Shown here piece by piece: positions 9,293 through 60,535 of a stretch of 64,000 nucleotides of DNA. The stretch comes from Candidatus Latescibacterota bacterium (GTDB taxonomy: Bacteria > Latescibacterota > UBA2968 > GCA-2709665). The notes beneath the pieces are model-generated. The model saw nothing but the letters and a program-made list of their open reading frames with translations, was not told the origin of the DNA and did not search any database. Made by a program: the position numbers and the translations under genes. Positions within the stretch are counted from its first letter, which is position 1. Each line of letters starts with the position of its first letter. The DNA lies in contig OZ220733.1 in the NCBI GenBank assembly GCA_965116875.1, positions 1,024,001 through 1,088,000 on the forward strand, written 5' to 3'.

Positions 9293-9412
9293 TCCTCCAT
9301 GATACCCATTTGCCGTTGCATCCTGCAACACATTCGTTGGCTTTGGTATTGCGATGCGGGAATGCCGAAGGGCGGCGGCAGCGACGCGGGAAGATTGATG
9401 GGTAGCGGGCAT
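9293..9412 (-). other. possible fifth double-glycine leader, in frame with the aminotransferase
   Basis: GAGGAG precedes ATG 9412 with a short spacer. The first 40 aa end IPKPTNVLQDATANGYHGG, the same [IL]P-x5-L-x9-GG spacing as the four precursors. Confidence 0.35.
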
Positions 9413-9492
9413 GTCTCCTCAGACCTCATCTCTTCTATGGAACAGAATCGTATACGATGGTTCTGGCGGAAATTCTCTTTCGAATCTCACGA

Positions 9493-10347
9493 TCAGACAG
9501 GCTCCCGTTCATCAGGCGCCTCGGCCCGCTCAGGATCAGCGCAGGGTTCGAGCGGCATCCCGTCGCGATTTGCCATCTGATTGAACCACCGCAAACCGAC
9601 CAGTGCCAGGACGATACCGCAGGCAAACAGCCACCAGGGAAGAAACTCCACAATATGCCAATCCCCGATGGGTCGGATCATTTCATAACGGACAGATATC
9701 AATGAGAGAGAATTGCTCAGCGCGTGACCGAATAGCGCGGGCATCAAAGAACCCGTCCGTACGACCCACCACGCAAATACGAGCCCCAGTATCAAAGATC
9801 CGGAAAACTGCCATGGATTCATATGCATCGCGGCGAACAGTACTGCAGACCACAAAATGGCGCGCCGGCGGGTACCGTGGGCTAACAGCCCGCCCAGAAT
9901 AACGCCTCTGCAGAGGACCTCCTCGGTAAGCGGCGCTTGAATCGCGAGAACGTAAAACGCGAGACCAAATGGTGTTTTGCTCCCCATTAGATCAATGAAT
10001 ATGGCGAGTATTTCTTCGGGGATTGGAATCAGGTATTGGACGAAAGTTGCAATGTTGGTCACGACAAGGCCCAAACCCGCAATGGAAACGGAAAGTGGCA
10101 GGTACATTTTCCACGGCACTGTCCTGAAAAGCAGGATGTCGGACCAGGGCCGACCGGATCGACGTTGCGCGTATAACACGATCAGAGCGAAGACGGGGAG
10201 GTTTAGAATCCATCCCAGGTAATCGAAGATTCGTGTCTCCTTGCCGGACGCGGCACCGAGGAAATGAAGCACCAACCCCAATGCTTGCGTTGCCACCACA
10301 AGCAAGACCACCAGCCAAACGGACTGCTTCAGATTCGGATACGCCAT
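9493..10347 (-). CDS. CPBP (CAAX/Abi) intramembrane glutamic protease
   Basis: EEVLCRG, FAAMH and HALSN motifs; multiple hydrophobic segments; N-terminus MAYPNLKQS shared with the paralogs. Confidence 0.9.
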   Translation of the reverse strand: MAYPNLKQSVWLVVLLVVATQALGLVLHFLGAASGKETRIFDYLGWILNLPVFALIVLYAQRRSGRPWSDILLFRTVPWKMYLPLSVSIAGLGLVVTNIATFVQYLIPIPEEILAIFIDLMGSKTPFGLAFYVLAIQAPLTEEVLCRGVILGGLLAHGTRRRAILWSAVLFAAMHMNPWQFSGSLILGLVFAWWVVRTGSLMPALFGHALSNSLSLISVRYEMIRPIGDWHIVEFLPWWLFACGIVLALVGLRWFNQMANRDGMPLEPCADPERAEAPDEREPV

Positions 10348-10467
10348 GTGATTCCTTCCCCCTGGGCGATCTGATGATCGGACGTTCAATCAACCGTACA
10401 TCCGTGGAGTTGAGCCCCCTATTCCACGCCGATACAGACTACACCCTTATGTTTACTGTAAAGCCGG

Positions 10468-11316
10468 TTATGACGGAAGGGGGCGCCTTTGGACATGCTC
10501 CGTGCCTGCGTTTGTTTCGACCTGCCCGCCTCTGCTTCCCGCCGCTTTCTTGAACCACCACAGTCCGATCAGGGCAAGGGAGACGCCGCAAACGTGCAGC
10601 CACCACGGAAGCAGCGTCCCGACGCTGATATGGTCTCTGGGTCCGAAAACCCCCAGATGTGCGGCCGTCACGATCAGGAAATTGTTCAGCGCGTGTCCCG
10701 CGATCGCCGGAAGCAGAGAGCCGGTCTGGACGACCCACAATGCGAATACGAGCCCCAATATCAGAGCGGTCGGATATTGCCATGGGTTCAGGTGCGATAC
10801 GGCGAACAGCAGTGACGACCAGACGATCGCACGGCTCCGCGTTCGGTTGGCAAGAAGGCCCCCCAGTATAACCCCCCTGAAGAAGACTTCCTTCGCAAGA
10901 GGCGCCTGTACCACCATGGCGTAAAACGTGAACGCGTACGGCGTCTCCCGCCGCGCCGTTCCCCCGAACAAATTCCGGACGTTTTCGGACACCGGAATCA
11001 GTTGCCGGAACAGGTTTCCCAGGTCCGAGCCTACAATTGCGACTCCAACAATACACACGCCGAGCGGCAGGTAGAGGCGCCACGAAACCGGATTGAGGAG
11101 CAGGATGTCGGACCACGTCCGGTCGGTTCGGCGGTACGCGTACATGACCGACAAAATGAAACCGGCCAATATCATAAACTGAATTACGTAGGGACTCTTG
11201 AGCAAGGACCGGTCTAGAATGGCGCCAAGAATGCCAAACGGCAGTGCCACCACAAGGGAGAACAGGAAGAACAGCACGACCAGCCACACGGACTGCCTCA
11301 GATTCGGATACGGCAT
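10468..11316 (-). CDS. CPBP intramembrane protease paralog with altered motif 1
   Basis: KEVFFRG instead of EExxxR, plus FAVSH and HALNN. Start MPYPNLRQS follows GGGAGG. Confidence 0.85.
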   Translation of the reverse strand: MPYPNLRQSVWLVVLFFLFSLVVALPFGILGAILDRSLLKSPYVIQFMILAGFILSVMYAYRRTDRTWSDILLLNPVSWRLYLPLGVCIVGVAIVGSDLGNLFRQLIPVSENVRNLFGGTARRETPYAFTFYAMVVQAPLAKEVFFRGVILGGLLANRTRSRAIVWSSLLFAVSHLNPWQYPTALILGLVFALWVVQTGSLLPAIAGHALNNFLIVTAAHLGVFGPRDHISVGTLLPWWLHVCGVSLALIGLWWFKKAAGSRGGQVETNAGTEHVQRRPLPS

Positions 11317-11825
11317 GTAATCCCTCCCGTATTGAATCGTTTGGACGACAGTACATCCGGAGACCCGCATTCCGGCGCCCGCCGCGATTTCGTTGTGCTC
11401 ATGACTTCGGCAAATCCTGCCACAATCGCAATCAGTGTCCTGCTGATTTGCCGCGCAATCCAGGTCAATACGCAAAATACGAGCCAAACTCGAACCAACG
11501 AATAACCCGATGTATATACGGGACTTAATTGAGATCGCGCGGCGAGTTGGAAAGTAGCGGACGTGTAGCAAAATGCGCCTGACCGCCCTATGGAGAGTTC
11601 CTCCCCCGCAAACGGAAGCACGATATTGGTTTATTCCTGCGGTGTTTTTGGACGCGAAGCGAACGGTCTGTCTGCAAATGACGTATTCTGCGTCGCATGG
11701 CGCGTTTTGCGACATCTGGCGACGGCCGAATGTGCGCGACGTCGTCCACCGAAGGCAACTGCCTGACCCGGCGTTGGAGTGCGCCGGCACACGATGGATG
11801 TTGAGGAGGACCATCAGGGAAGGGC

Positions 11826-12040
11826 ACAAAAAATCCCGCTCCATCCCTTGCCGTTCAGTGATGCGCACCTTAGCGGCACCCCGGTTAAAGGGTGCCGGGC
11901 AGTGTCACCACTCACGCAGCTTTTAGGATGCGGGAAGGTCCTACGTATTCACCGGGGACAAGGGAGCTACCCCTGCCCCTGAATGTCGGCTATTGTATTC
12001 GGTAGGCTACCCGACATACGGGTACTGCCCGAGTGGTGAC
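11826..12040 (-). ncRNA. candidate structured non-coding RNA or leader, family unassigned
   Basis: Multiple nested and alternative complementary segments directly downstream of a sigma70-like promoter, ending at a U6 tract (see findings). Confidence 0.5.
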
Positions 12041-12046
12041 AAACCA

Positions 12047-12075
12047 AATATAGTTTCCGCTTTCGTGAATGACAA
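12047..12075 (-). promoter_or_regulatory. sigma70-like promoter
   Basis: TTGTCA-N17-TATATT on the minus strand. Confidence 0.6.
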
Positions 12076-12264
12076 GGGCTAATTTGCGTCTTCAAAAAAT
12101 CTACGAGACCTGCGAGGCGCGATGTCGTGTGCCCGTCGGAAGCCGGTACATTGCAATGGTCGCCGGCTGCGGCGAAATACGCGAACCGGAGAACTGAAGT
12201 CGTGCCAGAATTGCTGATTGGCCGGTACTGGTGCATCGTGGCGGCACCAGCCTCCGTCTCGCGT

Positions 12265-13083
12265 CTACTCCCGGTTCTTCTTCGCGGTTTCCCAGATCGG
12301 GTAGTGGATTTCCGCCCGCTGATACTCACTCTGCAGCCACTGGCTGAACAGCGTATCGCGGATCTCGTTTGATACGCGATCGTCAAGGATTGCCGGAAAG
12401 TTCCGCTGCAGCATATACAACGCAAAACCGCCCGATGCCTTTTCGGGTCCGAAGACTTCACCCGGTGCGGCGGCGAAGAGGCGCGCCGCAATCCCCCTGG
12501 GCAACTGCCCGCGTCGGACTCGCCCGACAAAACCGCCGGACGGACCCGTGCGTTCATCCTGTGAGAATTCGCGGGCCATTCTGCAAAAATCAGCGCCTTC
12601 TTCTCTGGCCTGAAGCCCGATTTCGTCCATCACGCCCTTGTCACGGTGGAAAATCCAGCAGACTTCCGCCTCGTCGAAATCCAGCTTGTGTTGCGCGAAA
12701 TAGGGTTCGATCCTTCCGTCCACGACCTTGTCGGACAACGCGCGCTCCAACCGTTTCACCTGGGCGTCTTCCGCGACGTCCGCCAGGGTAATGCCCCGGG
12801 ACCGGAGCCACGCTTCTGTGTCTTCAACCCGTTCCAGCCGATGTCTATAGCGCCAGTCGTCCACGTCGCGCTGGATGTCTTCCGGCTTCACGCGGATGCC
12901 TTCCCGGACTGCAAGCTGGCGCACCAGTTCTCTGCGCGCGAATTCACCGAAGAAATCGAGTTTGTCGGCGACCCCCAGTTCACGGACGACCTGACTCAGC
13001 GACACGCCGGCGCCATTGACCTGGACGAGCGTGGTTTCCCGGGACGGAGTTGGGTTCCCGCCTTCCGCGCGAGGACTCATCAC
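12265..13083 (-). CDS. PpiC/parvulin-type peptidyl-prolyl isomerase associated with type I secretion
   Basis: F..MAREFSQD..TGPSGGFVG and PGEVFGP rotamase motifs; helical N-domain, no signal peptide; overlaps the HlyD stop. Confidence 0.8.
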   Translation of the reverse strand: MMSPRAEGGNPTPSRETTLVQVNGAGVSLSQVVRELGVADKLDFFGEFARRELVRQLAVREGIRVKPEDIQRDVDDWRYRHRLERVEDTEAWLRSRGITLADVAEDAQVKRLERALSDKVVDGRIEPYFAQHKLDFDEAEVCWIFHRDKGVMDEIGLQAREEGADFCRMAREFSQDERTGPSGGFVGRVRRGQLPRGIAARLFAAAPGEVFGPEKASGGFALYMLQRNFPAILDDRVSNEIRDTLFSQWLQSEYQRAEIHYPIWETAKKNRE

Positions 13084-14480
13084 GAGTCCTCCGGCTGAGC
13101 CGTCACCGCCCTGATGGCGTCGTACGTTGCTGATTCATAAAGCCTCCGCAGAGGACTCAGAAGCATCAGCAGGACGGATTGGCGGTCCGTCATGATCTCA
13201 GCGGTACCTTTCATGCCGAACAGGAGCGGCTTCTCCCGCCCCTTTACGTCCACGGTGGTTTCTTCCAATTCAACGACACCCCTGAAAACCGGTCCGACCG
13301 TCTCATCGATGACGGCATCCGGCGAGATCTGTTTGAGCCACCCGCGTTTGATTCCGAAATCCTGGAACGCGAAGGCGTCGTATTTCAGTTTCACGATCTG
13401 ACCCGGTTTCAGCATGCCCACGTCCTTGTTCAATACCGTGAGTTCGGCGACGATCGGGGCGGACGCCGGCGCTACCGAAACCAGCGCCTGCCCCTTGCTG
13501 ACGACCTGTCCGAGCGCATTCACCTCCACCCGCGTCACAATGCCGGATTCCGGCGCCAGTATGAGGTCAGACTCCGCTTCCAGCCGGCGGTCGACGCGTT
13601 TGCGCGCCTGTTCCAGTCTCAATCGCGCATTTTCGTACGCGTGTTTCATCTGTGACGCCTCGCGGCCATGCGCGATTCGCGTCTCCAGAATCTGACGCTT
13701 GAGGTCCTGGACGGCCGTCTCGTTCCTGTAGATTTCCGACATTCGTCCCGGAAGCGCCGCGAGTGCGCTCAGGTACCGTACACGCGCCTGATTGATATCC
13801 ACCCGGCTGATCAGTTTTCTCTGGAACAGCATCTTCTGCTGAAGATAGTCCTGCTTCAAATGATCGATTTCCGCCTGCCTGAAGCCGATCTGCGCCTGCA
13901 GTTCCGCCTCGGAATCGTTCCTTCCGGATCCTTCGGCATCACCCGCATCGTCATGGTAATCCCTGAGGGCGTTCTGATGCGCCGCCATGAACCGCTGCAG
14001 AACAGCCAGTCTCTTTTCGAGCGACGCGATCGTCTCCCGGTTCAATTCAGACTTCCGGGGCAAAACCTGATTGAAGTCGTACCCGGCCTGCTGATACGCC
14101 ATTTCCGCCTGTTCCAGTTCTCGAAGGTCTCCCCATGTTTCCCACGACTTCAGCTTGAACAGCAACTGGCCTTCTTCGATCCGATCGCCCTCGCTGACAC
14201 CGATGTGCTCGATCTCGCCGCCGCGACGCGCCTGCAACGTCTTCACCTTACCCAGGGGCACAAGTTGAAACGGCGCCGACGCCACAACGTCCACCTTGCC
14301 CCACCACGCCCAGACCACCGCGATCCCGACAAACAGAAGCACGACGTAGAGCAGCGCCCGCCCCCAGAACGGCCTCAGCGAACCGAAAAACGCCTGCATC
14401 TCCTCCGAGGCGTGCTCCCGCGCGGGCAGATGCATCGGTGACGACGCTCCCGACGATTCCGATTGTTGCGGTTCCGCCAT
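13080..14480 (-). CDS. HlyD-family secretion adaptor
   Basis: N-terminal TM, coiled coil, ILAPESGIV, KYDAFAFQDFG, ISPDA and GMKGTAEI. Confidence 0.9.
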   Translation of the reverse strand: MAEPQQSESSGASSPMHLPAREHASEEMQAFFGSLRPFWGRALLYVVLLFVGIAVVWAWWGKVDVVASAPFQLVPLGKVKTLQARRGGEIEHIGVSEGDRIEEGQLLFKLKSWETWGDLRELEQAEMAYQQAGYDFNQVLPRKSELNRETIASLEKRLAVLQRFMAAHQNALRDYHDDAGDAEGSGRNDSEAELQAQIGFRQAEIDHLKQDYLQQKMLFQRKLISRVDINQARVRYLSALAALPGRMSEIYRNETAVQDLKRQILETRIAHGREASQMKHAYENARLRLEQARKRVDRRLEAESDLILAPESGIVTRVEVNALGQVVSKGQALVSVAPASAPIVAELTVLNKDVGMLKPGQIVKLKYDAFAFQDFGIKRGWLKQISPDAVIDETVGPVFRGVVELEETTVDVKGREKPLLFGMKGTAEIMTDRQSVLLMLLSPLRRLYESATYDAIRAVTAQPEDS

Positions 14481-14507
14481 CCGATCGGCTCCTCGTCAAC
14501 CCCAGGT

Positions 14508-17500
14508 TCATGTCAATTGCAACTGCTGGCTGCACATGTGATAGTAGAGACCCCGGCGAAGCATCAGTTCTTCGTGCGTGCCGGTGTCGAGAATATGGCC
14601 CTTTTCCATTACGAGAATCGTGTCCGCGTCCCTCACCGTGCTCAGGCGATGGGCGATTACCAGGGACGTGCGGTTTTCCAGGAATAGCGCCAGATTGGAC
14701 TGGATGGCGGCCTCCGAGTCCGTATCCAGCGCATTTGTCGCTTCGTCGAAAATTAGGATTCCCGGATCGCGATACAACGCGCGCGCGATCGCGACCCGTT
14801 GGCGCTGCCCGCCGGACAATCCGATTCCCTGTTCGCCCACCTTCGTCTCGTATCCCAGGGGCATCTCGTTTACGAAGTCGTGGACACATGCCAATTTCGC
14901 AACTTCCAGGAGGCGGTCCATATTCGCGTCCGATTCTCCAACCGCGATGTTCTCGGCAATGGTTCCGCTGAAGAGAAAGGAGTCCTGCATGACCATGCCC
15001 ACCTGGCGGCGCAGCCAGTGAGGGTCGAAGTCGCGCACGTCCATCTCGTCCAGCAGCACACGGCCTTCCGTGGGATCGAAGAGGCGGGGCACGAGCTTGA
15101 CGAGCGTGGTCTTTCCGGCGCCGCTGCGTCCCACGATGGCGACCTTGTGTCCGGGCTTCAGTTCCAGGTCGATGTTGTTCAACACGTAGGGTTCATCGGT
15201 TCCGACGCCGTACCTGAAGAACACGTTCTCGAAGACCAGACGTCCTTCAACCTGCTTCAGTCTCAGGCCGTGTCCGCTCTGGCGCGCACTCTCCATCTTC
15301 GAGTCATAGACGTCATTCAGCCGGTCCAGGGCGACCCGGGCCTCCTGAACCTCGGGCCACACGCCGATCAAACCCATAATGGGGCCCATCACGTTGCCGA
15401 TGAGGGCGTTGAACGCCATCAATTGACCGACCGACAACTCACCGGCGATAACCAGGGAAGCGCCATACCACAGAATCACCGTGGAACTCAGCAGATTGAT
15501 CATGCTTCCGCCCGCGCCGAACAGCATCTCCATTTTCAATCGTCGGAATCCGATCTGGATTTCCCGGGTAAACTTGCCCTCCCACTGCCATCTCGTTACC
15601 CGTTCGACCGCTTCGGCTTTCACAACGTCGATCCCGTGCAGCGAATCGATCAGGACGGAGGACTGTTCAGCGCGGGCGAGAAATGCCCGCTGGCTGAAGG
15701 ACTTCAGGATCGGGGTATAGATCAGCGTCAGCCCGACGGAGAGCGGCACGAAGATCAACATCACGAGCGTCAACTCCCAGTTGTAGTAGAACATCAGTCC
15801 GAGATAGACGAACAACATGATAAAATCGAGTATCGCCGAAATGGTCGTGTCGGTGAACAGCCGCTGGATCGTCGCGTTTTCCTTGAATCGTGTGGTCAGA
15901 TCGCCGGTGCGGCGCAACGCGAAGAAGCGCATGGACAGGCCCAGCAGATGGCGGTAGAACCGGGACAGCATGGTGAGGCTCAGCCTGGCGCTGATATATC
16001 CGATCAGATACGCGCGCAGCGTCGAGGTACCCATCTGGAAGAGCGCGACGACGACCATACCCGCCAGCATCAGGTTCAAAAGGTCCTCGTCGTGATGCAC
16101 CAGCACCTGATCGACGATCGTCTGCGTGAAGACCGGCGAGGCGAGGCCGAACAGGCTGAGTACCAGGGACGCCAGCAGGACCTCGACCAGAATGGCCGTA
16201 TAGGGCTTTATCAGCGGCAAGAAACGCTTGAAGGAAGACCTTGAGGGTTCGTTCTCCGCCACCTGATCCGTGTATTCCAGGAGCAACGCCATATTGGTCC
16301 AGCTCTTCTCGAACTCCCCCCGCGCCATCCTGCGAACGCCCAAGCCGGGATCCGCGATTCTCACGTCTTTCCTGTTGATCTCGTACAATACCACGAAGTG
16401 ATTGCCTTCCCAGTGCAGAATCGCCGGAAGTCCGGTCCTCATCAGCGCTTCATAACCCGTGCGCACGCCCCGGGTGACGAATCCCAGCGTCTCCGCCGCC
16501 TCGGCCAATGCCGCCATAGATGTACCTTCCCGCGACACGTTGCACATATCGCGCAGCCGGTTCAACCCGATCGGCATCTTGTAATACTTGCAGATCATCC
16601 CCAGACACGCTGCCCCGCAGTCGGACTGATCGTGCTGCTTCAGGAACGGAAAACGAAAGGACGTCGATGTTCTGTGTTGCGCTTCAGACGTCCCGGTATT
16701 CGGGACGTCGTTTGTGGCGCCATTCGCCGCAACGGCGTTGTTCACCGCCGCCGTTTCCGCGTGGACGTGAATTCCGTCCGATTCAATCTCGCGGGACAGC
16801 GACCTTTCCGATCCAGGTTCCTGGTACAACCGGCTGGCTTTCTCTCTCAAGGGGGTTAATGCAAGGATCGATTGATTCAGGCCTTCCAGGTCGGGCTTTT
16901 CCAAAAGGTAGATAACGCTATTGACCCGGCTTCGGATCGTCCGTGACTCGCCACCTGAAGAGTCTGTCTCTTCGAAAAAATCCCCCGCGTCCAGAGAATG
17001 CGTGCTTCCGTCCTTGAGAATCACGTCCAACCCGCCGCTGCCCACCACGCAGAAACGCCCGCTCGAATGACCTGATTGCGTGAACGACGCGCCCTCGGCG
17101 ACCTCCTCTCGCTTCAGACGTTGGAACAACTCCCGCATCTCATCTCCGGAAACGGAGCCCTTCAGAAACCTCGTGAAATCCCGATACGCGATATTCGCAA
17201 CCTGATCCTGCAGATGGGCCCCCAGCTCCGGCTCTTTCTTCAATACGTTGAAGAAATCATCCTGCGTCACCCTCAGCACCACGGTGTCCTCCGCGGCTCG
17301 CACCGCAGCCCGATGGCCCTGCTCCGTCAACAGCGCCCCCTCGCCAAAGTGGTCGCCGGCGTACAAGAAGCCCGCGGTTTCAGGCTGGGCATTCGTATTC
17401 CGTTTGATCACTCGCAGCCGGCCGGATTCTACCAGGTAGAACGCATCGCCAGGCGCGCCCTGTTCAATGACAACCTCTCCGAAGCGAAACCGCACGGATT

Positions 17501-17543
17501 CCGGCTGATTCGACGACTGAGAAAAGTAGCTGAAGACGTCCAT
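14508..17543 (-). CDS. peptidase C39-containing ABC exporter with two N-terminal cNMP-binding-like domains
   Basis: QGAPGDAFYLVESG..GDHFGE (cNMP); QHDQSDCGAAC, HWEGNHFVV and IADP (intact Cys-His-Asp); GRSGAGKT and LSGGQRQR. Confidence 0.92.
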   Translation of the reverse strand: MDVFSYFSQSSNQPESVRFRFGEVVIEQGAPGDAFYLVESGRLRVIKRNTNAQPETAGFLYAGDHFGEGALLTEQGHRAAVRAAEDTVVLRVTQDDFFNVLKKEPELGAHLQDQVANIAYRDFTRFLKGSVSGDEMRELFQRLKREEVAEGASFTQSGHSSGRFCVVGSGGLDVILKDGSTHSLDAGDFFEETDSSGGESRTIRSRVNSVIYLLEKPDLEGLNQSILALTPLREKASRLYQEPGSERSLSREIESDGIHVHAETAAVNNAVAANGATNDVPNTGTSEAQHRTSTSFRFPFLKQHDQSDCGAACLGMICKYYKMPIGLNRLRDMCNVSREGTSMAALAEAAETLGFVTRGVRTGYEALMRTGLPAILHWEGNHFVVLYEINRKDVRIADPGLGVRRMARGEFEKSWTNMALLLEYTDQVAENEPSRSSFKRFLPLIKPYTAILVEVLLASLVLSLFGLASPVFTQTIVDQVLVHHDEDLLNLMLAGMVVVALFQMGTSTLRAYLIGYISARLSLTMLSRFYRHLLGLSMRFFALRRTGDLTTRFKENATIQRLFTDTTISAILDFIMLFVYLGLMFYYNWELTLVMLIFVPLSVGLTLIYTPILKSFSQRAFLARAEQSSVLIDSLHGIDVVKAEAVERVTRWQWEGKFTREIQIGFRRLKMEMLFGAGGSMINLLSSTVILWYGASLVIAGELSVGQLMAFNALIGNVMGPIMGLIGVWPEVQEARVALDRLNDVYDSKMESARQSGHGLRLKQVEGRLVFENVFFRYGVGTDEPYVLNNIDLELKPGHKVAIVGRSGAGKTTLVKLVPRLFDPTEGRVLLDEMDVRDFDPHWLRRQVGMVMQDSFLFSGTIAENIAVGESDANMDRLLEVAKLACVHDFVNEMPLGYETKVGEQGIGLSGGQRQRVAIARALYRDPGILIFDEATNALDTDSEAAIQSNLALFLENRTSLVIAHRLSTVRDADTILVMEKGHILDTGTHEELMLRRGLYYHMCSQQLQLT

Positions 17544-17733
17544 GGTTTCGTTCCGGTTTATGGCGGAATTATTCCATTGTCAGGTTGTAGACCCGTGTCC
17601 GACGAGACGCGGTTCGCTAATCATCGATGATGCTTCCGGTCGGGACCGCCAGGCTTTTAGTCGCGGACGGGTAGTCCCGGATCTTGCCCCGAATTGTCAT
17701 CTGCGGGCAACAAACACGTCTATTTTATCGGTA

Positions 17734-17753
17734 ATATACTATATATAGTATAT
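17734..17753. promoter_or_regulatory. perfect 20-bp palindrome, candidate operator
   Basis: ATATACTATATATAGTATAT in an AT-rich patch about 190 bp upstream of the exporter. Confidence 0.55.
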
Positions 17754-17841
17754 ACAGTCGCATTCGTGCCCGAGTGTTATCCCGAAGAGAGTCCCCCTGA
17801 CCGATGTGACTGCGGCCAAGGCATGAGCAACCGTTCAGTCC

Positions 17842-18063
17842 CTACACTGCGTCCGACACGGCATCCGAGGGAAGGGCCAGGCCCTCGGAAACACGTTGCT
17901 CGTTCTGCGGAACCCGGGCAAACCAGCACAGTCCAAGTGCAGCAAGAGCTACCCCCGATGCACTCCACCACCAGGGATTGAACGCAACTTCGTTAAGGTC
18001 TCCTGAAATGTCCTGATGTCGCGTGTAAAAGTGCAGAATAATCGTGGCGATGAGGTTGTTTAG
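17842..18063 (-). pseudogene. C-terminal remnant of a fourth CPBP protease
   Basis: Manual translation LNNLIATIILHF...DLNEVAFNPWWWSASGVALAALGLCWF...stop aligns with LNNFIGVTTLHF...DFNVVVFNPWWWTGGGVLLAALGLWWF of 19733..20587; the 5' part is missing. Confidence 0.8.
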
Positions 18064-18698
18064 TACGTTCCGGCATGATCTTTCCTGGAATCATTTCGGA
18101 TCGTTAAGCTACTTCGCTCCGGCGGAGATTGCCCTTCCGGCCAGACAAAGCAACCAATTTCCGATGGGTGATCCTGAACCCACAGGTCGACGGGGAAATT
18201 CCGGATCTTGAAATCAATCAAGACATCCCCCGCACATGCAGAAAAACTTAAACTGAAGAGCAAAAGTGTCCATAAAGACGGGTACAACAGAAGGAAGAGA
18301 CCGGCAACCGGCACTGTGACCGCGAGAGGCAACAGCAGCAATCTACGAAAAGCGCCAATCCTCATCGGGCTCGAGCAATGACAATAGGCAACAAGCCATT
18401 TCAAATTGAATCCGAAACGAATCGAACTGAATGGCGCCTTGCCCCAAAGCAATGCGGCCAGGGCATGCAACGCTTCGTGGCCAACCGCCAGCAAGACGAG
18501 ACTTCCCAGAAACACCCACAGATTGAAATTGGCCGCCCGGAGGTCGACATTCCATCCGGACAAGCACCAGTGCACCACAAGGACTGCGTTGACCGCAACA
18601 AAAAACATCACGAGCGAAAGAACAAACATCGCAAGCGCGCCTGTGCGGATCGTGAGGATCTCCTGGGAATCTTTATTCATGATCTCTTGTGAACACAT
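18060..18698 (-). CDS. DUF3267-like putative membrane zinc peptidase
   Basis: HEALH, YCHC, AGD and QDHPSEIG motifs; several TM segments. Confidence 0.8.
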   Translation of the reverse strand: MCSQEIMNKDSQEILTIRTGALAMFVLSLVMFFVAVNAVLVVHWCLSGWNVDLRAANFNLWVFLGSLVLLAVGHEALHALAALLWGKAPFSSIRFGFNLKWLVAYCHCSSPMRIGAFRRLLLLPLAVTVPVAGLFLLLYPSLWTLLLFSLSFSACAGDVLIDFKIRNFPVDLWVQDHPSEIGCFVWPEGQSPPERSSLTIRNDSRKDHAGTY

Positions 18699-18821
18699 TT
18701 CGATTATTCAAGCCGGCGCAATGTATCGTGGAGCTACAAATATCGAACGTCCTTTGGAAGTCATCGATGTTCGTTTAATGCGCCTGCCGGATCCACCTGT
18801 CGCGGGTTCGCATACGAACGT

Positions 18822-19634
18822 CTAGCGTGCGGGCGTCTCCCCTGCGGGAAACATGGTGAAACCCACCTCTGACGAATGATCCTGAATCCAACTGTCATTG
18901 TCATATCTGCGAGCCTTTGAATAAACCATGACATCTCCCGCGCCTCCGGCAAACGTGGCACTCAACAGGAAAAGCGACCAGAGCGCGGGGTCCCACAGCA
19001 GCACCAATACCGCAATCGGCGTGGTTACGATCATCGGCAAGACTGCGAATACCCGGAAAGCGCTTAGTGTCATCGGTTTGTCAGCGTGGCAATATAAGGC
19101 CATTAATCGTGTGTTGATCCCAAAGTGCAGTGACCTGAATGGTATTTTTCCCCACGCCATCGCGGCAAGACCGTGAAGCGCTTCGTGTGCAATATAGATA
19201 GCGAGAAGGAGTCCTACGAATTTGATGAATCCTCCGAACGATAGTCGTAAATCAAGATCCCACGAAGAAAAGAATCCAACCAACAGGATTGTCATTGCGG
19301 CAAGACAGAACATTAGGGCCGACAATGCGTGTACTTCCTCTTTATCGAATATCACTTCATGAGATTTCAGGCCAACACCGCCGTTGGTGTGTTCGGTATC
19401 CGGCTTTAGCAGTCCACAGACTGCGGACACCATTCCCGCTGCAGTTTCATAGAACTTTCTTCGGAAGATTATAAATGAGATTGCCTGAACAACCAGGACC
19501 GCCATCAGGACCGCAAGACCGATTTGAATGACGTATCTGAGAATCAGCAAGACAGGCGCAACGGAAAATAACACGTACGCTATGGCAGCGAGAACCCAAC
19601 CTCTCCACGTTCGTGTGTGGAGGATGTCGGTCAT
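18822..19634 (-). CDS. DUF3267-like putative membrane zinc peptidase with two extra N-terminal TM helices
   Basis: HEALH, YCHAD, GAGD and QDHSSEVG; AAGGAGG precedes ATG 19634. Confidence 0.8.
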   Translation of the reverse strand: MTDILHTRTWRGWVLAAIAYVLFSVAPVLLILRYVIQIGLAVLMAVLVVQAISFIIFRRKFYETAAGMVSAVCGLLKPDTEHTNGGVGLKSHEVIFDKEEVHALSALMFCLAAMTILLVGFFSSWDLDLRLSFGGFIKFVGLLLAIYIAHEALHGLAAMAWGKIPFRSLHFGINTRLMALYCHADKPMTLSAFRVFAVLPMIVTTPIAVLVLLWDPALWSLFLLSATFAGGAGDVMVYSKARRYDNDSWIQDHSSEVGFTMFPAGETPAR

Positions 19635-19732
19635 CCGGGACCTCCTTTTCGCATGAATGCCCCTTATCTGAGGGGCAGGAACCTGTATTGTAATTTGTTC
19701 GCGGCGTAATTTCAAGAACCGTCGAACAACGG

Positions 19733-20587
19733 CTATTCACCTTCTCCTGGCGTATCTGTTGTCACAATCGCATCGGGGTCGGCTGATTGAGTACCGGTCG
19801 AAATCTGGTGAAACCACCAGAGTCCAAGCGCAGCCAATAACACGCCACCACCTGTCCACCACCACGGATTGAAGACCACGACATTGAAATCTTCTGCTAC
19901 TATGAAATATGGTATTTCGAAGTGCAAAGTCGTGACGCCGATGAAATTGTTCAATGCGTGACCGAAAAGTGCGGGCCACAAAGATCCCGTCCGGAAATAC
20001 CACCAGGCGAATACGAACCCGTACAAGAGGGCCGGAGGAAACTGCCACGGGTTCAGATGCCCCACGCCGAAGAGAAGCGCCGACCAGGCCATGGCCCTGT
20101 TCCCGGAATAGCGGACCAGCAGACCGCCGAATATCACACCTCTGTATAGAAACTCTTCGACGGACGGCGCGACAAACACGGCCCGAAAAACAGCTGAGGA
20201 ATAAGATGTCTTGCGCCCGAACTCCGAATTGAAAACGTCCTGGACGAAATCAGGCATAGGAACCAAGTGAATCACCACTTTATCCAATTCAAACAGAACC
20301 ATCCCGAGACCGACGACCGAGATTGCCACACATGGCCACACACGCGAATCGAAGTTCGTGTTCAGCAATAGTGATGCGTCTCTCCAAGTTCGATCCGTGC
20401 AACGGAAAACGTAGTGCAAGAAGAAAAAGTACACCGCCAGAATTAATATCCCTGTCAAGAGGTTTTCGTGTCGAAAACTCTCGCCGAGGATGGTTTGTAC
20501 AGCGTAGATGATTAATCCCAAAACCGATTGTGTTAACCAGAACAAAACCACCAACCAGATCGACTGCCTAAGGTTTGGATACGTCAT
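19733..20587 (-). CDS. CPBP intramembrane protease
   Basis: EEFLYRG, FGVGH and HALNN; N-terminus MTYPNLRQS. Confidence 0.9.
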   Translation of the reverse strand: MTYPNLRQSIWLVVLFWLTQSVLGLIIYAVQTILGESFRHENLLTGILILAVYFFFLHYVFRCTDRTWRDASLLLNTNFDSRVWPCVAISVVGLGMVLFELDKVVIHLVPMPDFVQDVFNSEFGRKTSYSSAVFRAVFVAPSVEEFLYRGVIFGGLLVRYSGNRAMAWSALLFGVGHLNPWQFPPALLYGFVFAWWYFRTGSLWPALFGHALNNFIGVTTLHFEIPYFIVAEDFNVVVFNPWWWTGGGVLLAALGLWWFHQISTGTQSADPDAIVTTDTPGEGE

Positions 20588-20680
20588 CGAACTCTCGCTA
20601 GTATTTTTTCGTTTAGCTGATCGTCGTCCGCACGTTCAAACATGTCACCTCCCGGTTCCATTCTATAGTGTCAGGCTGTC

Positions 20681-21301
20681 TCAATCTGGCGGGCATTGTC
20701 CTTCCGGCCAGATCAAACACCCAGGTTCAGATGGGTGATCCTGTACCATGGTATCCGTTCCAAATCGGCGCAACTTCAGAAATATCATGATATCTCCAGA
20801 ACACACACAGACTGTTGCACTGAAAAGCAATAGAGACCAGATGGTAGGATCCAGCGAAAATAACAGACCGGCAGCCGGTGTCGTTACGATCAATGGAAAG
20901 AGAATAACGATTCGTTGAACGCGCATTGCCAATGCCTTATCCACATGACAATAGAAGACCAACCACTTCCAATTGGCACCGAATCGAATTGAGCTGAATG
21001 GCACCTTGCCCCATTGCAGTGCTGCAATGGCGTGCAATGCCTCGTGAACTGCAATAAGCAAGACAAGACTTACGAGAAATATCCACCTATCTATGTCTTC
21101 CACGCGAAGCTGAATCTTCGTATGCAACAAATGTGCCCCAAGAAGGCAGAAATTGAACGCCCCAAAAAACAAGATTAATCCAATAATGATCGCATTGACT
21201 TTGCTCACACGGATTTCGTTGACCTCCTTGCCCTTCTCGTTGGTCTCCTGGAGAGCCGCTGCGTACACTTCTTTTACTGCCGACATCGGAGTCTCCATCA
21301 T
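20681..21301 (-). CDS. DUF3267-like putative membrane zinc peptidase
   Basis: HEALH, YCHVD, SGD and QDHPSEPG motifs. Confidence 0.8.
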   Translation of the reverse strand: MMETPMSAVKEVYAAALQETNEKGKEVNEIRVSKVNAIIIGLILFFGAFNFCLLGAHLLHTKIQLRVEDIDRWIFLVSLVLLIAVHEALHAIAALQWGKVPFSSIRFGANWKWLVFYCHVDKALAMRVQRIVILFPLIVTTPAAGLLFSLDPTIWSLLLFSATVCVCSGDIMIFLKLRRFGTDTMVQDHPSEPGCLIWPEGQCPPD

Positions 21302-21411
21302 TGCTATTGGTATGCAGCCGGACCGACGGGCAATCGGTTTGAGGTTTCCTCATCCTTCTTTCTTCGACACACTCAGGATAGACCCAATGAAAAGCCTGCC
21401 CGACAGTCCGT

Positions 21412-21455
21412 GGGTCTGGTTTCCACTAAATGCGTCTTCAGTGGAAACCAGACCC
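21412..21455. terminator. perfect 16-bp stem-loop between the precursor genes and the protease genes
   Basis: GGGTCTGGTTTCCACT-N12-AGTGGAAACCAGACCC with no U-tract. Confidence 0.55.
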
Positions 21456-21501
21456 GTCACTTTGTGATTTGCAACAACTCACCACTATGAACGAATCGGA
21501 C

Positions 21502-21801
21502 TTACAGATTCGACAGGCCGTCAGCCATTTTACTTGCCCATTGATCGAAAGTATCCGATACGAAATTTACGCCATCCATAATCCTATCGCCGTACCAGCA
21601 GACAGATTCAACGATATCCTGGGGCTTTGTCGCTGCTACGACAACGAGTCCGCCCACAATCGCCCAGATGACGGGATGTCCTCCCGAGACTTGGGCCATG
21701 GTATGCTCATTTACGGTTTCTTGTCTTGTCGGCAATGCCGGACAGGAGATGAGTTCGCTCTTTGTATCGGTTGCCCACGGAAAAGCCAATGCATGCGTCA
21801 T
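21502..21801 (-). CDS. double-glycine leader precursor peptide 4 (58-aa core HPVIWAIVGG...)
   Basis: RBS AGGAGG; leader ends LPTRQETVNEHTMAQVSGG. Confidence 0.8.
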   Translation of the reverse strand: MTHALAFPWATDTKSELISCPALPTRQETVNEHTMAQVSGGHPVIWAIVGGLVVVAATKPQDIVESVCWYGDRIMDGVNFVSDTFDQWASKMADGLSNL

Positions 21802-22095
21802 GATTTCCTCCTGGAGAGTTAATTTAATTTCCGCGATTATTGCCTTTCCTGCGTGTCTTGCTTCGCCGAAAGGTTGATGGTTTTCTGGATTTCGGCTGAG
21901 ACGATTACATTGTATCTCGCCCCGATGTAACCCGCTCTATCGTTTTTTCACGTCTTTTTTCGACTACTTAAGTTGAGCGCTGGATTTCCTCGCATTGAAG
22001 TCGCCACCGGACTTCTATCAACCTGTCGAAACTTCAACAATGGTGACTGTGGAATTCGTTAGATCGAATTGCCACTCGTGGTGGCGTGACAAGGA

Positions 22096-22302
22096 TTAAG
22101 GCAGGTCATCAAGGCAGTATTGGTAGAGTTCGGCTATTTCGTCGGCGAAAACATAAGCCAACAGCGCGGGAAGAACAACCGCTGGAAATATCCCTCCCTG
22201 AGTGTTCGTCGCCTCACGACCCACAAGTTCGGTTTCCCGTCCTGGCAGTTGAGCAAAAGCTACGGAATGGTGAGTTGGGGCTACCAGAATTCGATCTCTC
22301 AT
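22096..22302 (-). CDS. double-glycine leader precursor peptide 3 (31-aa core IFPAVVLPALL...)
   Basis: RBS AAAGGAGGT; leader ends LPGRETELVGREATNTQGG. Confidence 0.8.
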   Translation of the reverse strand: MRDRILVAPTHHSVAFAQLPGRETELVGREATNTQGGIFPAVVLPALLAYVFADEIAELYQYCLDDLP

Positions 22303-22473
22303 TTTGCCACCTCCTTTCTACAAGACTCCCGGTGATACGCAGGGGAGTCTCGAGATGCGTGGTATATTGAAGAGATGCCCAACGAATGCGCGGAGCAATC
22401 GGAAGTTCGTGTTCGAGGCTTCGACCGCGAAGGCCACTGTCGCGAACAGCGTTACGGCTGGTTGTCCCGAGCG

Positions 22474-22674
22474 TCAACTTCCGTCTTCTAGGTAATCCCT
22501 GATGGCTTCTGCAATTAACAGAGCAAGAACGGGTACGATTGGTCCTTTTCCAATAGGGGAAATACCCCCCGATGCATGAATCATCTCACCGTACGCAAGG
22601 CCGGTTTCCCGCCCGGGGAGATGGCCGCAGATTACAGCAGCTTGCGTTGGAGTCGATTGAACTTGGTCTGTCAT
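22474..22674 (-). CDS. double-glycine leader precursor peptide 2 (29-aa core ISPIGKGPIV...)
   Basis: RBS AAAGGA; leader ends LPGRETGLAYGEMIHASGG. Confidence 0.8.
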   Translation of the reverse strand: MTDQVQSTPTQAAVICGHLPGRETGLAYGEMIHASGGISPIGKGPIVPVLALLIAEAIRDYLEDGS

Positions 22675-22758
22675 TTCGTCACGTCCTTTCTGTTCTACAT
22701 CTTTGATGTATTGGTGGGTTTCGCAATCGCAATAGCTGCTCGAATTTCTCCCTGACAG

Positions 22759-22962
22759 TTACAGCACGGGACCGGCCGCGCCTGTTTCCGGCAGATTCGT
22801 GCCTATGTCTATCCCGAACAAATTCCTCAGGATATCCCGCCAACGTATGGCTCCGCCGGAGATCTGCGCGGTCTGCACGGCGGTCAAGTCCTCCGTCTTA
22901 ACCGGCAACCTCGCCGGATTCTTCAACGTGCCCACCGTGCTTGATTCGAATCGTTTGTTCAT
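22759..22962 (-). CDS. double-glycine leader precursor peptide 1 (30-aa core AIRWRDILRN...)
   Basis: RBS AAAGGAGGTGA before ATG 22962; leader ends LPVKTEDLTAVQTAQISGG. Confidence 0.8.
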   Translation of the reverse strand: MNKRFESSTVGTLKNPARLPVKTEDLTAVQTAQISGGAIRWRDILRNLFGIDIGTNLPETGAAGPVL

Positions 22963-57059: not shown

Positions 57060-57374
57060 TCACGGACCCCCCAACGGCACGTGGTATTCGTCGTGATGAT
57101 CATGACCCCATTCACAGTTCTCCGCGCCCCCGCCGCCAACGACCGCCGCCAACTCGTCCTCGCTCATCGCCTCCGGTCCGGTTCTCAGCGGGAGAACCAG
57201 GTGCGCGGTAGACAGGTTGTCTTCGTGGACTTCAACCGCGAAATTTTCCGGAATCTTAACGCCGAGCTCTTTTTCTATCGAGCCCCTGGGATCTTTCAGC
57301 AGACCGGCGCGAAACTCCGCGTCAAACGACGCTTTGAATACGACGTGTTCCTGCATTTCCTTCATGGTCTTCAT
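57060..57374 (-). CDS. NHLP (nitrile hydratase-like leader) RiPP precursor
   Basis: KA..DAEFRAGLLKDP, V.VHED...HLVLP and MSEDELAAVVGG leader; core GGAENCEWGHDHHDEYHVPLGGP; AGGAGG RBS. Confidence 0.92.
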   Translation of the reverse strand: MKTMKEMQEHVVFKASFDAEFRAGLLKDPRGSIEKELGVKIPENFAVEVHEDNLSTAHLVLPLRTGPEAMSEDELAAVVGGGGAENCEWGHDHHDEYHVPLGGP

Positions 57375-57510
57375 CGTAGCCCTCCTATCCTGACGTGGTG
57401 GAATAAAGTGAACTTTTCGTGATACTCGATATAAATATCGTCTTAATCGTGATTTAATGGATCTATATCGATAATAAAAATGACCTTTTCGTGATAATAG
57501 CCACAACGCA

Positions 57511-57538
57511 AATATAACGAAGTTCTGTTGAATGTCAA
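57511..57538 (-). promoter_or_regulatory. sigma70-like promoter of the NHLP precursor
   Basis: TTGACA-N16-TATATT followed by an AT-rich leader. Confidence 0.6.
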
Positions 57539-57588
57539 CCCCGGCGCCGGGACTCCCGGGAGGGCGCGGGGGCAGGTCCCTTTGCGAC

Positions 57589-60531: not shown

Positions 60532-60535
60532 GATG

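Follow-up and report, generated by a model that had tools for sequence, protein, structure and literature searches.

An uncultured Candidatus Latescibacterota bacterium carries, within the 64,000-nucleotide stretch of contig OZ220733.1 analysed here (assembly GCA_965116875.1; the window), a cluster of genes for four small double-glycine peptides, six intramembrane protease homologs of two families and a dedicated peptidase-bearing exporter. We give about an even chance to the reading that this locus, at positions 9493-22962 and with every gene on the minus strand, is an arsenal of class II (unmodified) bacteriocins or microcin-like peptides in which the proteases serve as immunity partners. 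Read 5' to 3', the order is P1 to P4 (the precursors), a hairpin, Da (DUF3267), Ca (CPBP), Db and Dc (both DUF3267), a CPBP remnant, a palindrome, the ATP-binding cassette (ABC) exporter gene, HlyD, PpiC, a structured RNA, and Cb and Cc (both CPBP). An initial annotation of this DNA had listed these genes in the same order and on the same strand, had counted six intramembrane protease homologs, and had proposed an unmodified multi-peptide double-glycine system with its own exporter. Open reading frames (ORFs) and domain scans reproduce the order and strand, three DUF3267 and three CPBP proteins lie above the Pfam cut-offs, and the system as proposed is supported. Its statement that no modification enzyme is visible also held, as no lanthionine, YcaO, radical-SAM or ATP-grasp domain was found in the ORFs scanned between 5988 and 26177.

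The four precursors anticipated by that annotation share one leader and are preceded by strong ribosome-binding sites, of the GGAGG type and 5-9 nucleotides 5' of each ATG. P1 (22759-22962; 67 residues), the first gene of the operon, has a leader ending in ..QISGG and a 30-residue amphipathic core of the type we call P1a. P2 (22474-22674; 66 residues; leader end ..ASGG) has a core consisting of a short hydrophobic stretch and then an acidic tail, and P3 (22096-22302; 68 residues; leader end ..TQGG) likewise passes from a hydrophobic stretch into an acidic tail. P4, the "T-type" precursor (21502-21801; 99 residues; leader end ..VSGG), has a core that starts with a hydrophobic helix of 15-17 residues and continues into a conserved soluble part ending in ..DGLSNL. 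The four align over a common leader of 37-41 residues, in which Leu-Pro at −18/−17 and Gly-Gly at −2/−1 are invariant. Double-glycine leaders have Gly-Gly, or else Gly-Ala/Ser, at −2/−1; in their published consensus the leader helix carries Glu at −8 and is hydrophobic at −12, −7 and −4 (PMC3140520). P1-P4 carry both the terminal Gly-Gly and this leader-helix pattern; by inspection, they and their relatives have Leu or Val at −12, Glu, Gln or Thr at −8 (Thr in P4), Met, Ala or Thr at −7, and Ile, Val, Ala or Thr at −4. The family has in addition an N-terminal extension of its own, which carries the Leu-Pro. Gly-Gly is kept in most relatives matched by the leader profile, while a few in a second genus end in ..IDG or ..VAG. 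No Pfam or NCBIfam family could be assigned to P1-P4, and NHLP and Nif11 were unmatched. The ESM-Atlas clusters nearest to P4 are Bacillota "bacteriocin" clusters, with scores of 0.83-0.88 that fall under the 0.9 mark and give a lead only.

A profile made from the four peptides matched 22 proteins at E ≤ 0.01 among 162 candidates (5.8 billion proteins), namely 13 of P1 type, 5 of P4 type, 3 of P3 type and P2 itself. Among the P1 proteins the cores are conserved at least as well as the N-terminal half of the leader. When genes of different species were compared without gaps, the seven P1a genes showed 293, 239 and 427 differences at codon positions 1, 2 and 3, and seven P2 leaders showed 189, 178 and 367; P1b genes, some of which differ by one codon in length, were left out of these counts. 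Judged from such comparisons, the small ORFs are conserved as proteins far beyond chance, with changes between species falling mostly on the third position.

The exporter gene (14508-17543) encodes a protein of 1011 residues with a cyclic nucleoside monophosphate-binding (cNMP) domain, a C39 peptidase, a transmembrane domain and an ATPase, which scored 89.8 bits for PF00027 (residues 17-103), 132.6 for PF03412 (residues 298-424), 183.5 for PF00664 and 117.1 for PF00005. All three catalytic residues of the C39 domain can be read in the translation (Cys in ..SDCGAAC.., His in ..NHFVVL.., Asp in ..ADPG..), fused to the membrane and ATPase domains as in a peptidase-containing ABC transporter (PCAT). 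The initial annotation had placed two cNMP domains in tandem at the N terminus. One of these stands; a second was not detected by Pfam in residues 125-297, a beta-barrel-like segment that, scanned alone, gave a weak Cupin_2 match only (E 0.0057). The protein falls below the NCBIfam cut-offs for TIGR03796 (579.5 against 853.3 bits) and TIGR01193 (506.4 against 523.85) and is thus a relative of these families and not a member. HlyD (13080-14480; 466 residues), a periplasmic adaptor with an N-terminal membrane anchor, reaches 210.3 bits for TIGR01843 (cut-off 208.65). The start of the PpiC/PrsA-like parvulin gene (12265-13083; 272 residues) overlaps the HlyD stop by 4 nucleotides; its product scored 41.6 bits for PF00639 and matched PrsA and SurA chains, and neither a signal peptide nor a membrane segment is visible in it by eye. 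The parvulin gene adjoins HlyD in every locus with an intact exporter.

This module has well-described relatives. The initial annotation had likened the exporter to cyanobacterial HetC, and the likeness holds with the HetC-like "long type" module described in PMC3140520. According to that source, bacteriocin groups I, II and VI of cyanobacteria have the same combination of a long-type CAP_ED-C39 ABC protein, HlyD and a SurA/rotamase protein, and their double-glycine precursors, often acidic, are arrayed beside the exporter as they are here (PMC3140520). The architecture of groups I and II is present in the window, with the precursors 4 kb upstream of the exporter. In contrast to the cyanobacterial clusters, the locus belongs to another phylum, uses another leader family and includes arrays of two intramembrane protease families; the terms "CAAX" and "Abi" do not occur in the main text of PMC3140520, whose supplementary tables may differ, and DUF3267 is not reported in that text. 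A second comparison concerns the parvulin. MirC, of the TIGR04500 family, is likewise a PpiC-type protein that lacks a secretion signal and is encoded beside a peptidase ABC protein, in the rosaritide graspetide cluster, where it co-purifies with the graspetide synthetase MirB and is described as its required partner or chaperone (PMC13097080). The parvulin of the window matches TIGR04500 over residues 15-260 with 94.4 bits against a cut-off of 180, as a relative and not a member, and unlike the MirC cluster the locus has no ATP-grasp synthetase.

Between the precursors and the exporter lies the protease array. Da (20681-21301; 206 residues), the partner of P4, has the motif HEALH and four predicted helices with a core possibly resembling that of site-2 proteases. 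Ca (19733-20587; 284 residues) has intact EExxxR, FxxxH and HxxxN motifs. Db (18822-19715; 297 residues) is longer, having an additional hydrophobic region at its N terminus as well as HEALH, and Dc (18060-18698; 212 residues), which also has HEALH, stands without its own precursor gene directly upstream. They are followed by a CPBP pseudogene fragment that preserves about 65 C-terminal residues (17866-18060). This remnant is shared by loci L033 and L034, and a full-length CPBP gene occupies the same position in L038, L039 and L043. Beyond the exporter come Cb (10468-11322; 284 residues), in which KE replaces the EE of EExxxR, and Cc (9493-10389; 298 residues), in which all three motifs are intact and whose start is probably 14 codons later, at M-A-Y-P-N-L. 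The ORF 10468-11868 was rejected as the CPBP gene for being over-long; its likeliest start is the ATG at 11322, with GGAGGG upstream. PF11667 (DUF3267) scored 58.2, 58.1 and 51.0 bits in three ORFs against a cut-off of 27.1, and PF02517 (CPBP) scored 67.3-74.0 bits in three others against 22.4.

The catalytic motifs suggest that these proteins are working enzymes. HExxH is found in every intact DUF3267 copy of the loci compared, and in an alignment of 24 sequences H86, E87, H90 and a distal D170 are invariant; with their motifs kept, the DUF3267 and CPBP proteases look active. Cb may be different: its Lys-Glu change is common to the orthologues in L033, L035, L039, L043 and L045, and it could be an inactive paralogue or one of altered specificity. 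A structural model of Da (predicted local distance difference test 86.9, predicted template modelling score 0.79) was compared by VIA-align with known structures, and site-2 proteases made up four of the top six matches: SpoIVFB at Z 7.1 (root-mean-square deviation 3.2, 108 residues aligned), RseP at 6.7, mjS2P at 5.8 and Aquifex RseP at 5.7, all below Z 8 and in the range where chance matches of helical models are frequent. Foldseek returned nothing for the Da model in the PDB at E ≤ 0.001.

Proteases and peptides keep close company in this genome. All three of its DUF3267 domains, three of its five CPBP domains and all four of its leader-type peptides are inside the locus, and the remaining two CPBP domains are parts of ORFs of more than 1100 residues. 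Together with the fixed pairings described below, these counts support the proposal of the initial annotation that the proteases are tied to the peptides. It had also suggested searching genomes with a leader profile and then asking whether the proteases co-occur, and this search, which we ran, came out in its favour. With one genome per species, the P1 profile found 26 of 168 genomes of the phylum, this one counted: all 14 other species of its own genus, 11 of 21 species of a second genus from another family of the same order, and none in the other 47 genera. Across the same phylum PF11667 occurs in 41 of 168 genomes, among them 13 of 14 in the own genus (G056 has none), 14 of 21 in the second genus, and 13 genomes spread over nine further genera. 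Within the genus all 24 DUF3267 hits lie no more than 5 kb from P1. A search of genome contigs with a DUF3267 alignment and one very specific peptide pattern gave 17 loci, all in the same phylum, and is uninformative about other phyla. The genomes of the relatives are filed as Latescibacterota, and some submitters place them in Gemmatimonadota.

We compared 20 kb around the P1 match in 14 genomes of the own genus and 6 of the second genus, using tblastn and profiles of the window proteins. The flanking genes are the same in all 14 genus loci, with a GtrA/TMEM260-like gene on one side and DegT on the other, and the plan between them recurs: one to four precursors, a hairpin, an array of one to five DUF3267 and CPBP genes, the ABC-HlyD-PpiC exporter, and one to three further CPBP genes. 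P2-like genes are present in 12 of the 14. Upon this constant frame the exporter is conserved, with ABC protein identities of 78-92% within the genus and of 72-74% for the second genus, and the comparison indicates that the peptide/protease segment is hypervariable and swapped cassette by cassette between species. Locus L038 matches the window at 87% identity in the ABC protein, 42% in the T-type peptide and 48% in its partner DUF3267. The identities to the window in L033, L036 and L045 are 69-77% for the peptide and 71-74% for the partner. P1 exists with two alternative cores, P1a and P1b, at one position, and L041, although its ABC protein is 92% identical, carries the other core. In the window itself the variable segment has a G+C content of 0.49-0.51, against 0.57-0.64 on both sides of it.

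Several of these cassettes pair one type of peptide with one type of partner. T-type genes, whose core starts with a hydrophobic helix of 15-19 residues, have a short DUF3267 gene as their next gene in 10 of 10 distinct genomes, 7 of the own genus and 3 of the second. Precursors with a helix followed by C-terminal Cys and Lys/Arg residues are accompanied by a long DUF3267 gene of the Db type in 6 of 6 loci, adjacent in four of them. Gly/Ala-rich, microcin-like precursors are followed in 3 of 3 genomes (L044, L047 and L059) by a gene for a two-helix membrane protein of about 90-100 residues. L048 has three P1-like precursor copies, and 0.6-0.7 kb downstream of each stands a CPBP gene; the interval behind the first copy is taken up by a second ORF with a leader. 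For P2- and P3-like cores a fixed partner gene was not seen. At a greater distance, in L110, whose genus is in another family, a DUF3267 gene is immediately preceded by an ORF that combines a textbook ..LSREMMRGIAGG leader with a hydrophobic core. We give hardly any weight to the explanation that neighbours of this kind are unrelated, the proteases attending to general membrane-protein housekeeping and the small ORFs having no function. Nothing positive speaks for it, those ORFs are conserved and their changes are in excess at third positions, all the DUF3267 genes of 15 genomes are confined to the locus, and peptide and protease adjoin in two genera, with L110 adding a further instance of the arrangement.

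The Cys-rich tails followed by Lys/Arg occur at the ends of precursors in L034, L037, L040, L041, L042, L046 and L051, and one L051 precursor has a run of seven Cys. There are hints here of metal binding, disulfides or lipidation, and no modifying enzyme lies near the Cys-tailed precursors.

Partners are more numerous than peptides, and parts of the locus are in decay. By tally, in 14 of 15 genus loci the protease or partner genes that separate precursors from ABC gene are at least as many as the precursors other than P1; the exception is L034, with one intact gene and one frameshifted DUF3267 gene against two precursors. The Db type stands without a Cys-tailed precursor, as an orphan, in seven loci, the window included. 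In G054 (L036, L117) the stretch from about residue 344 of the ABC protein to about residue 106 of PpiC is replaced by some 13 kb, and the four precursors, the proteases and the RNA are kept; there the ABC gene has a frameshift at about residue 177 and ends at about 343, the foreign ORFs, several of them large, are on the other strand, and PpiC resumes at residue 107. In G081 (L047/L061) the ABC gene is frameshifted near residue 102 and interrupted by 1.26 kb near residue 776, and its precursors are separated from its DUF3267 gene by two nearly identical repeats of about 830 bp. Remnants, frameshifts and exporter loss of this sort resemble, by analogy, the decay typical of bacteriocin loci. 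Loci L049 and L050 of the second genus were rejected as protease-free examples: in G086 the precursors have a DUF3267 and CPBP pair about 4.3 kb to their upstream side, and in G082 part of a CPBP gene remains at the edge of the locus, with a DUF3267 match a further way off, 5 kb upstream.

These features can be combined into a mechanism of toxins paired with self-protection and used in competition between relatives. The hairpin after the precursor genes would let the precursors be made in excess over the products of the genes downstream. The parvulin, which would be cytoplasmic because it has no signal peptide, may act as a chaperone or partner of the precursors, perhaps through the invariant Leu-Pro of the leader. 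The C39 domain would cut the leaders after Gly-Gly, the cNMP domain would gate export, and the ABC-HlyD complex, with an outer-membrane channel encoded elsewhere, would carry the cores out of the cell. The adjacent intramembrane proteases would then cut the cognate peptide as it enters the inner membrane and so protect the producer, and because they protect in this manner, orphan proteases might be kept against the peptides of relatives. We prefer immunity to maturation as the role of the proteases because the leaders already have a dedicated peptidase in C39, because the proteases outnumber the peptides and occur as orphans, because a non-enzymatic small membrane protein fills the same slot after Gly-rich peptides, and because a species that has lost its exporter keeps its proteases. 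More tentatively, and at well under an even chance, each DUF3267 or CPBP protein may be a sequence-matched immunity protein that cuts one type of helix-bearing toxin, peptide and protease forming two-gene cassettes, with the orphans as a stockpile of resistance and the parvulin reading the Leu-Pro of the leader.

A different role for the same proteases is known from the transmembrane-helix bacteriocins of Staphylococcus and other Gram-positives, the TMcins (TmcA/TmcP/TmcE/TmcBC/TmcD). The DUF3267 protein TmcP was shown in 2026, as the first function for this family, to process such a bacteriocin: it removes the leader of membrane-integrated TmcA, needs HExxH and a distal Asp to do so, and works with a two-helix escort protein (PMC13712780). 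In our full-text search of the literature naming DUF3267, only the TMcin work deals with function. By this precedent the hydrophobic precursors here (P4, perhaps P2 and P3) would insert into the producer's inner membrane, be trimmed by the cognate DUF3267 or CPBP protein, and be extracted and exported by the ABC protein. We regard this, the main rival, as rather unlikely for the locus. Both systems set a helix peptide beside a four-helix PF11667 protease of the site-2-protease clan and an ABC exporter (PMC13712780). The window's DUF3267 proteins keep the TmcP motifs, the best structural matches of the Da model are site-2 proteases at the Z scores of 7.1, 6.7, 5.8 and 5.7 already qualified above, every helix-bearing precursor has a DUF3267 gene directly after it, and the two-helix proteins beside some precursors could be escorts like TmcE. 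The TMcin leader, however, is removed by TmcP, the transporter is without C39, and a conserved disulfide and an escort protein belong to the system, as set out in PMC13712780. Here, in contrast, Gly-Gly leaders and an intact C39 exporter make a second leader protease needless, the DUF3267 paralogues are several and some of them orphan, CPBP proteins stand alongside, and the host is Gram-negative. That proteases outnumber precursors, and that the long DUF3267 is found without its peptide, is odd for a maturation enzyme, and G056, whose Gly-rich precursor is accompanied by a small two-helix protein, has no DUF3267 in its whole genome. The TMcin hallmarks, two Cys with a disulfide and a DsbA-like TmcD, were not seen here, as judged without Tmc sequences.

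Alternatively, the cores could be signals, that is, pheromones or cues of kin recognition, which the CPBP and DUF3267 proteins process, as has been proposed for MroQ and SilX, or sense, and whose export the cNMP domain ties to the state of the cell. P1, universal, first in the operon, partnerless and with two alternative cores reminiscent of pherotypes, would suit such a role, as would cores that are acidic and non-cationic. The CPBP proteins give weak NCBIfam matches of the MroQ type (22.7-34.8 bits against a cut-off of 270), and the exporter has a conserved palindromic box on its upstream side. A parallel exists in SilX, the CAAX protease of a bacteriocin locus, whose deletion abolishes bacteriocin activity until the mature signal peptide SilCR is supplied; its authors infer that it takes part in exporting and processing SilCR (PMC9298176). 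We nevertheless find signalling quite improbable: none of the 20 loci has, inside or beside it, a gene for a histidine kinase, a response regulator or another receptor, the combination of up to four peptides and five proteases with rapid cassette turnover suits an arms race better, and membrane-active peptides typically have cores such as the Gly-rich, microcin-like and the helix-bearing ones seen here.

The palindrome just mentioned is a perfect, AT-rich sequence of 20 nucleotides at about 17734-17753, some 210 nucleotides upstream of the ABC start. Its consensus is close to (A/C)ATACTATATATAGTAT(G/A)T, and it aligns upstream of the ABC gene in 14 of 15 genus loci in one to three tandem copies (L033-L046 compared). 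Its chance expectation in the window is 0, and the genome has four such sites at up to 2 mismatches, against 0 for a reversed control; the three others, with 1-2 mismatches, adjoin unrelated-looking ORFs. No regulator for the box was identified in the locus or among the ORFs viewed beside those three sites. Its conservation points to an operator-like element. The hairpin downstream of the precursors (21412-21455; minus strand) has a 19-bp stem and a 6-nucleotide loop and lies about 50 nucleotides past the P4 stop. A stem of 10-19 bp follows the last precursor in 14 of 14 genus loci examined, with a sequence that follows the type of precursor, so placed that it is likely to be an attenuator or processing element between the precursor genes and those downstream.

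Several points weigh against an arsenal of bacteriocins with proteases as immunity. TmcP, the sole characterised DUF3267 protein by the account in PMC13712780, is a maturation protease and not an immunity protein, and SilX, as treated in PMC9298176, is not an immunity factor either. By analogy with TmcE, the small two-helix proteins could serve as escorts and not in immunity. P1 has no adjacent partner gene, and its core alleles are unmatched to the types of CPBP downstream (identities compared by eye). The cores are neutral to strongly acidic, unlike those of most cationic pore-forming bacteriocins. Neither an outer-membrane channel gene nor a regulator gene was found in the locus; the organism does encode LptD, and because it does we take it to be diderm. 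The 15 species of one genus, finally, share their gene order by descent, so that the counts given here are not independent.

The structured RNA lies at 11872-12049 (about 178 nucleotides, minus strand; fold z = −4.81), inside about 940 nucleotides of non-coding DNA between the PpiC gene and Cb, and a conserved candidate promoter of the sigma-70 type (TTGTCA-17-TATATT) precedes it at 12047-12075. The RNA is 89-95% identical in 12 of the 14 other genus loci. Searched with a covariance model, 36 of the order's 53 genomes contain it, each in 1-9 copies; this genome has a single copy, and a locus-linked copy is present in 14 of 15 genus genomes. Among 20 diverse copies both sides had changed in 25 of 57 pairs, and pairing was kept in 93.8% of cells, against 34-49% when the partners were slid, values reached by none of 500 shuffles; the alignment was fitted to the covariance model, which favours structure. 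The initial annotation had marked this stretch as a structured RNA candidate, and the strong covariation makes it real, as one member of a multi-copy family and not as a feature specific to the locus. A same-strand ORF follows 13 of 14 further copies examined, the nearest start being about 30-350 nucleotides downstream; these ORFs are of very different kinds, and transposases of four families are often found just upstream of the RNA. The Rfam model RF02221 (sRNA-Xcc1) gave 26.1 bits against a threshold of 53, spanning model positions 1-87 with insertions of 32 and 22 nucleotides, and as far as Rfam 15 shows the family is unnamed. The RNA probably has no function in the peptide system; it is a candidate for a mobile 5' leader or promoter cassette, or for an element linked to a mobile unit.

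Two further sets of genes were seen. In the second genus, L048, at 10297-13071 of that locus, and L051 have the same two extra genes between the CPBP array and the ABC gene, the first encoding a secreted protein of 289 residues with an HExxH..H motif and the second a lipoprotein-like protein of 355 residues that by its look resembles a tail-specific (S41) peptidase. At 57063-62755 on the minus strand, the window contains a second, separate peptide-export set resembling the three-gene NHLP transport system. It comprises an ORF (194 residues as called) with a segment like the nitrile hydratase alpha subunit, which is a possible NHLP-type precursor, a 980-residue ABC protein without a peptidase domain and a 739-residue C39 ABC protein.

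Class II microcins such as microcin V (CvaC/Cvi/CvaA/CvaB) are small unmodified peptides of Gram-negative bacteria with Gly-Gly leaders, exported by a C39 ABC protein and an HlyD-type adaptor and accompanied by an adjacent membrane immunity gene. The closest look-alikes in our comparison are the Gly/Ala-rich cores of L044, L047 and L059 with the two-helix protein downstream. In the window, by contrast, the partners are intramembrane proteases, the exporter gains a cNMP domain and a parvulin, and one locus holds up to four peptides. Abi proteins, the Gram-positive counterpart in this comparison, were reportedly placed in self-immunity by Kjos et al. in 2010. The pneumococcal blp and Lactobacillus pln loci, with CAAX/Abi (CPBP) immunity genes, share with ours a conserved C39 ABC protein and accessory protein beside a hypervariable region of Gly-Gly-leader peptides and membrane proteins. 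In blp, the putative immunity genes include those for CAAX proteases, there are more immunity than bacteriocin genes, and full-length blpA is present in a fraction of 0.249 of pneumococcal genomes, the transporter being often disrupted; the same paper calls the relation of CAAX proteins to small membrane immunity proteins unclear (PMC4860687). The surplus immunity genes and transporter decay of blp (PMC4860687) are parallel to the orphans and exporter loss described here. The hosts of blp and pln are Gram-positive, however, and the peptides cationic and regulated by two-component and pheromone systems, whereas our locus has no kinase or regulator gene; blp and pln in turn are without a HlyD/TolC-type route, parvulin, cNMP domain or DUF3267.

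The initial annotation had recognised no named class in this combination. That overstates the case, as the parts have named relatives in the cyanobacterial exporter, the blp and pln loci and the TMcins. In the literature on DUF3267, TIGR04500 and bacteriocins we did not find Gly-Gly leaders and a C39 exporter joined to paired DUF3267/CPBP arrays in a Gram-negative candidate phylum. With this locus the CAP_ED-C39/HlyD/rotamase exporter of cyanobacteria is seen in a further phylum, where its cargo is defined. It also supplies natural matched pairs of peptide and protease in many allelic forms, including two T-type pairs, the Cys-tailed type with its long DUF3267 and the repeated precursor/CPBP units, in which specificity and mechanism can be tested by swapping partners, and it thereby allows a direct test of what intramembrane proteases do in bacteriocin loci, a matter that has long been unclear. 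If the matched cutting of helix-bearing toxins proves true, it would amount to proteolytic immunity against membrane-inserting bacteriocins in Gram-negatives and to a second role for DUF3267 proteins beside maturation of the TmcP type. The locus shows as well that a candidate phylum without cultured members has a rapidly evolving arsenal of peptides, on a par with the streptococcal one.

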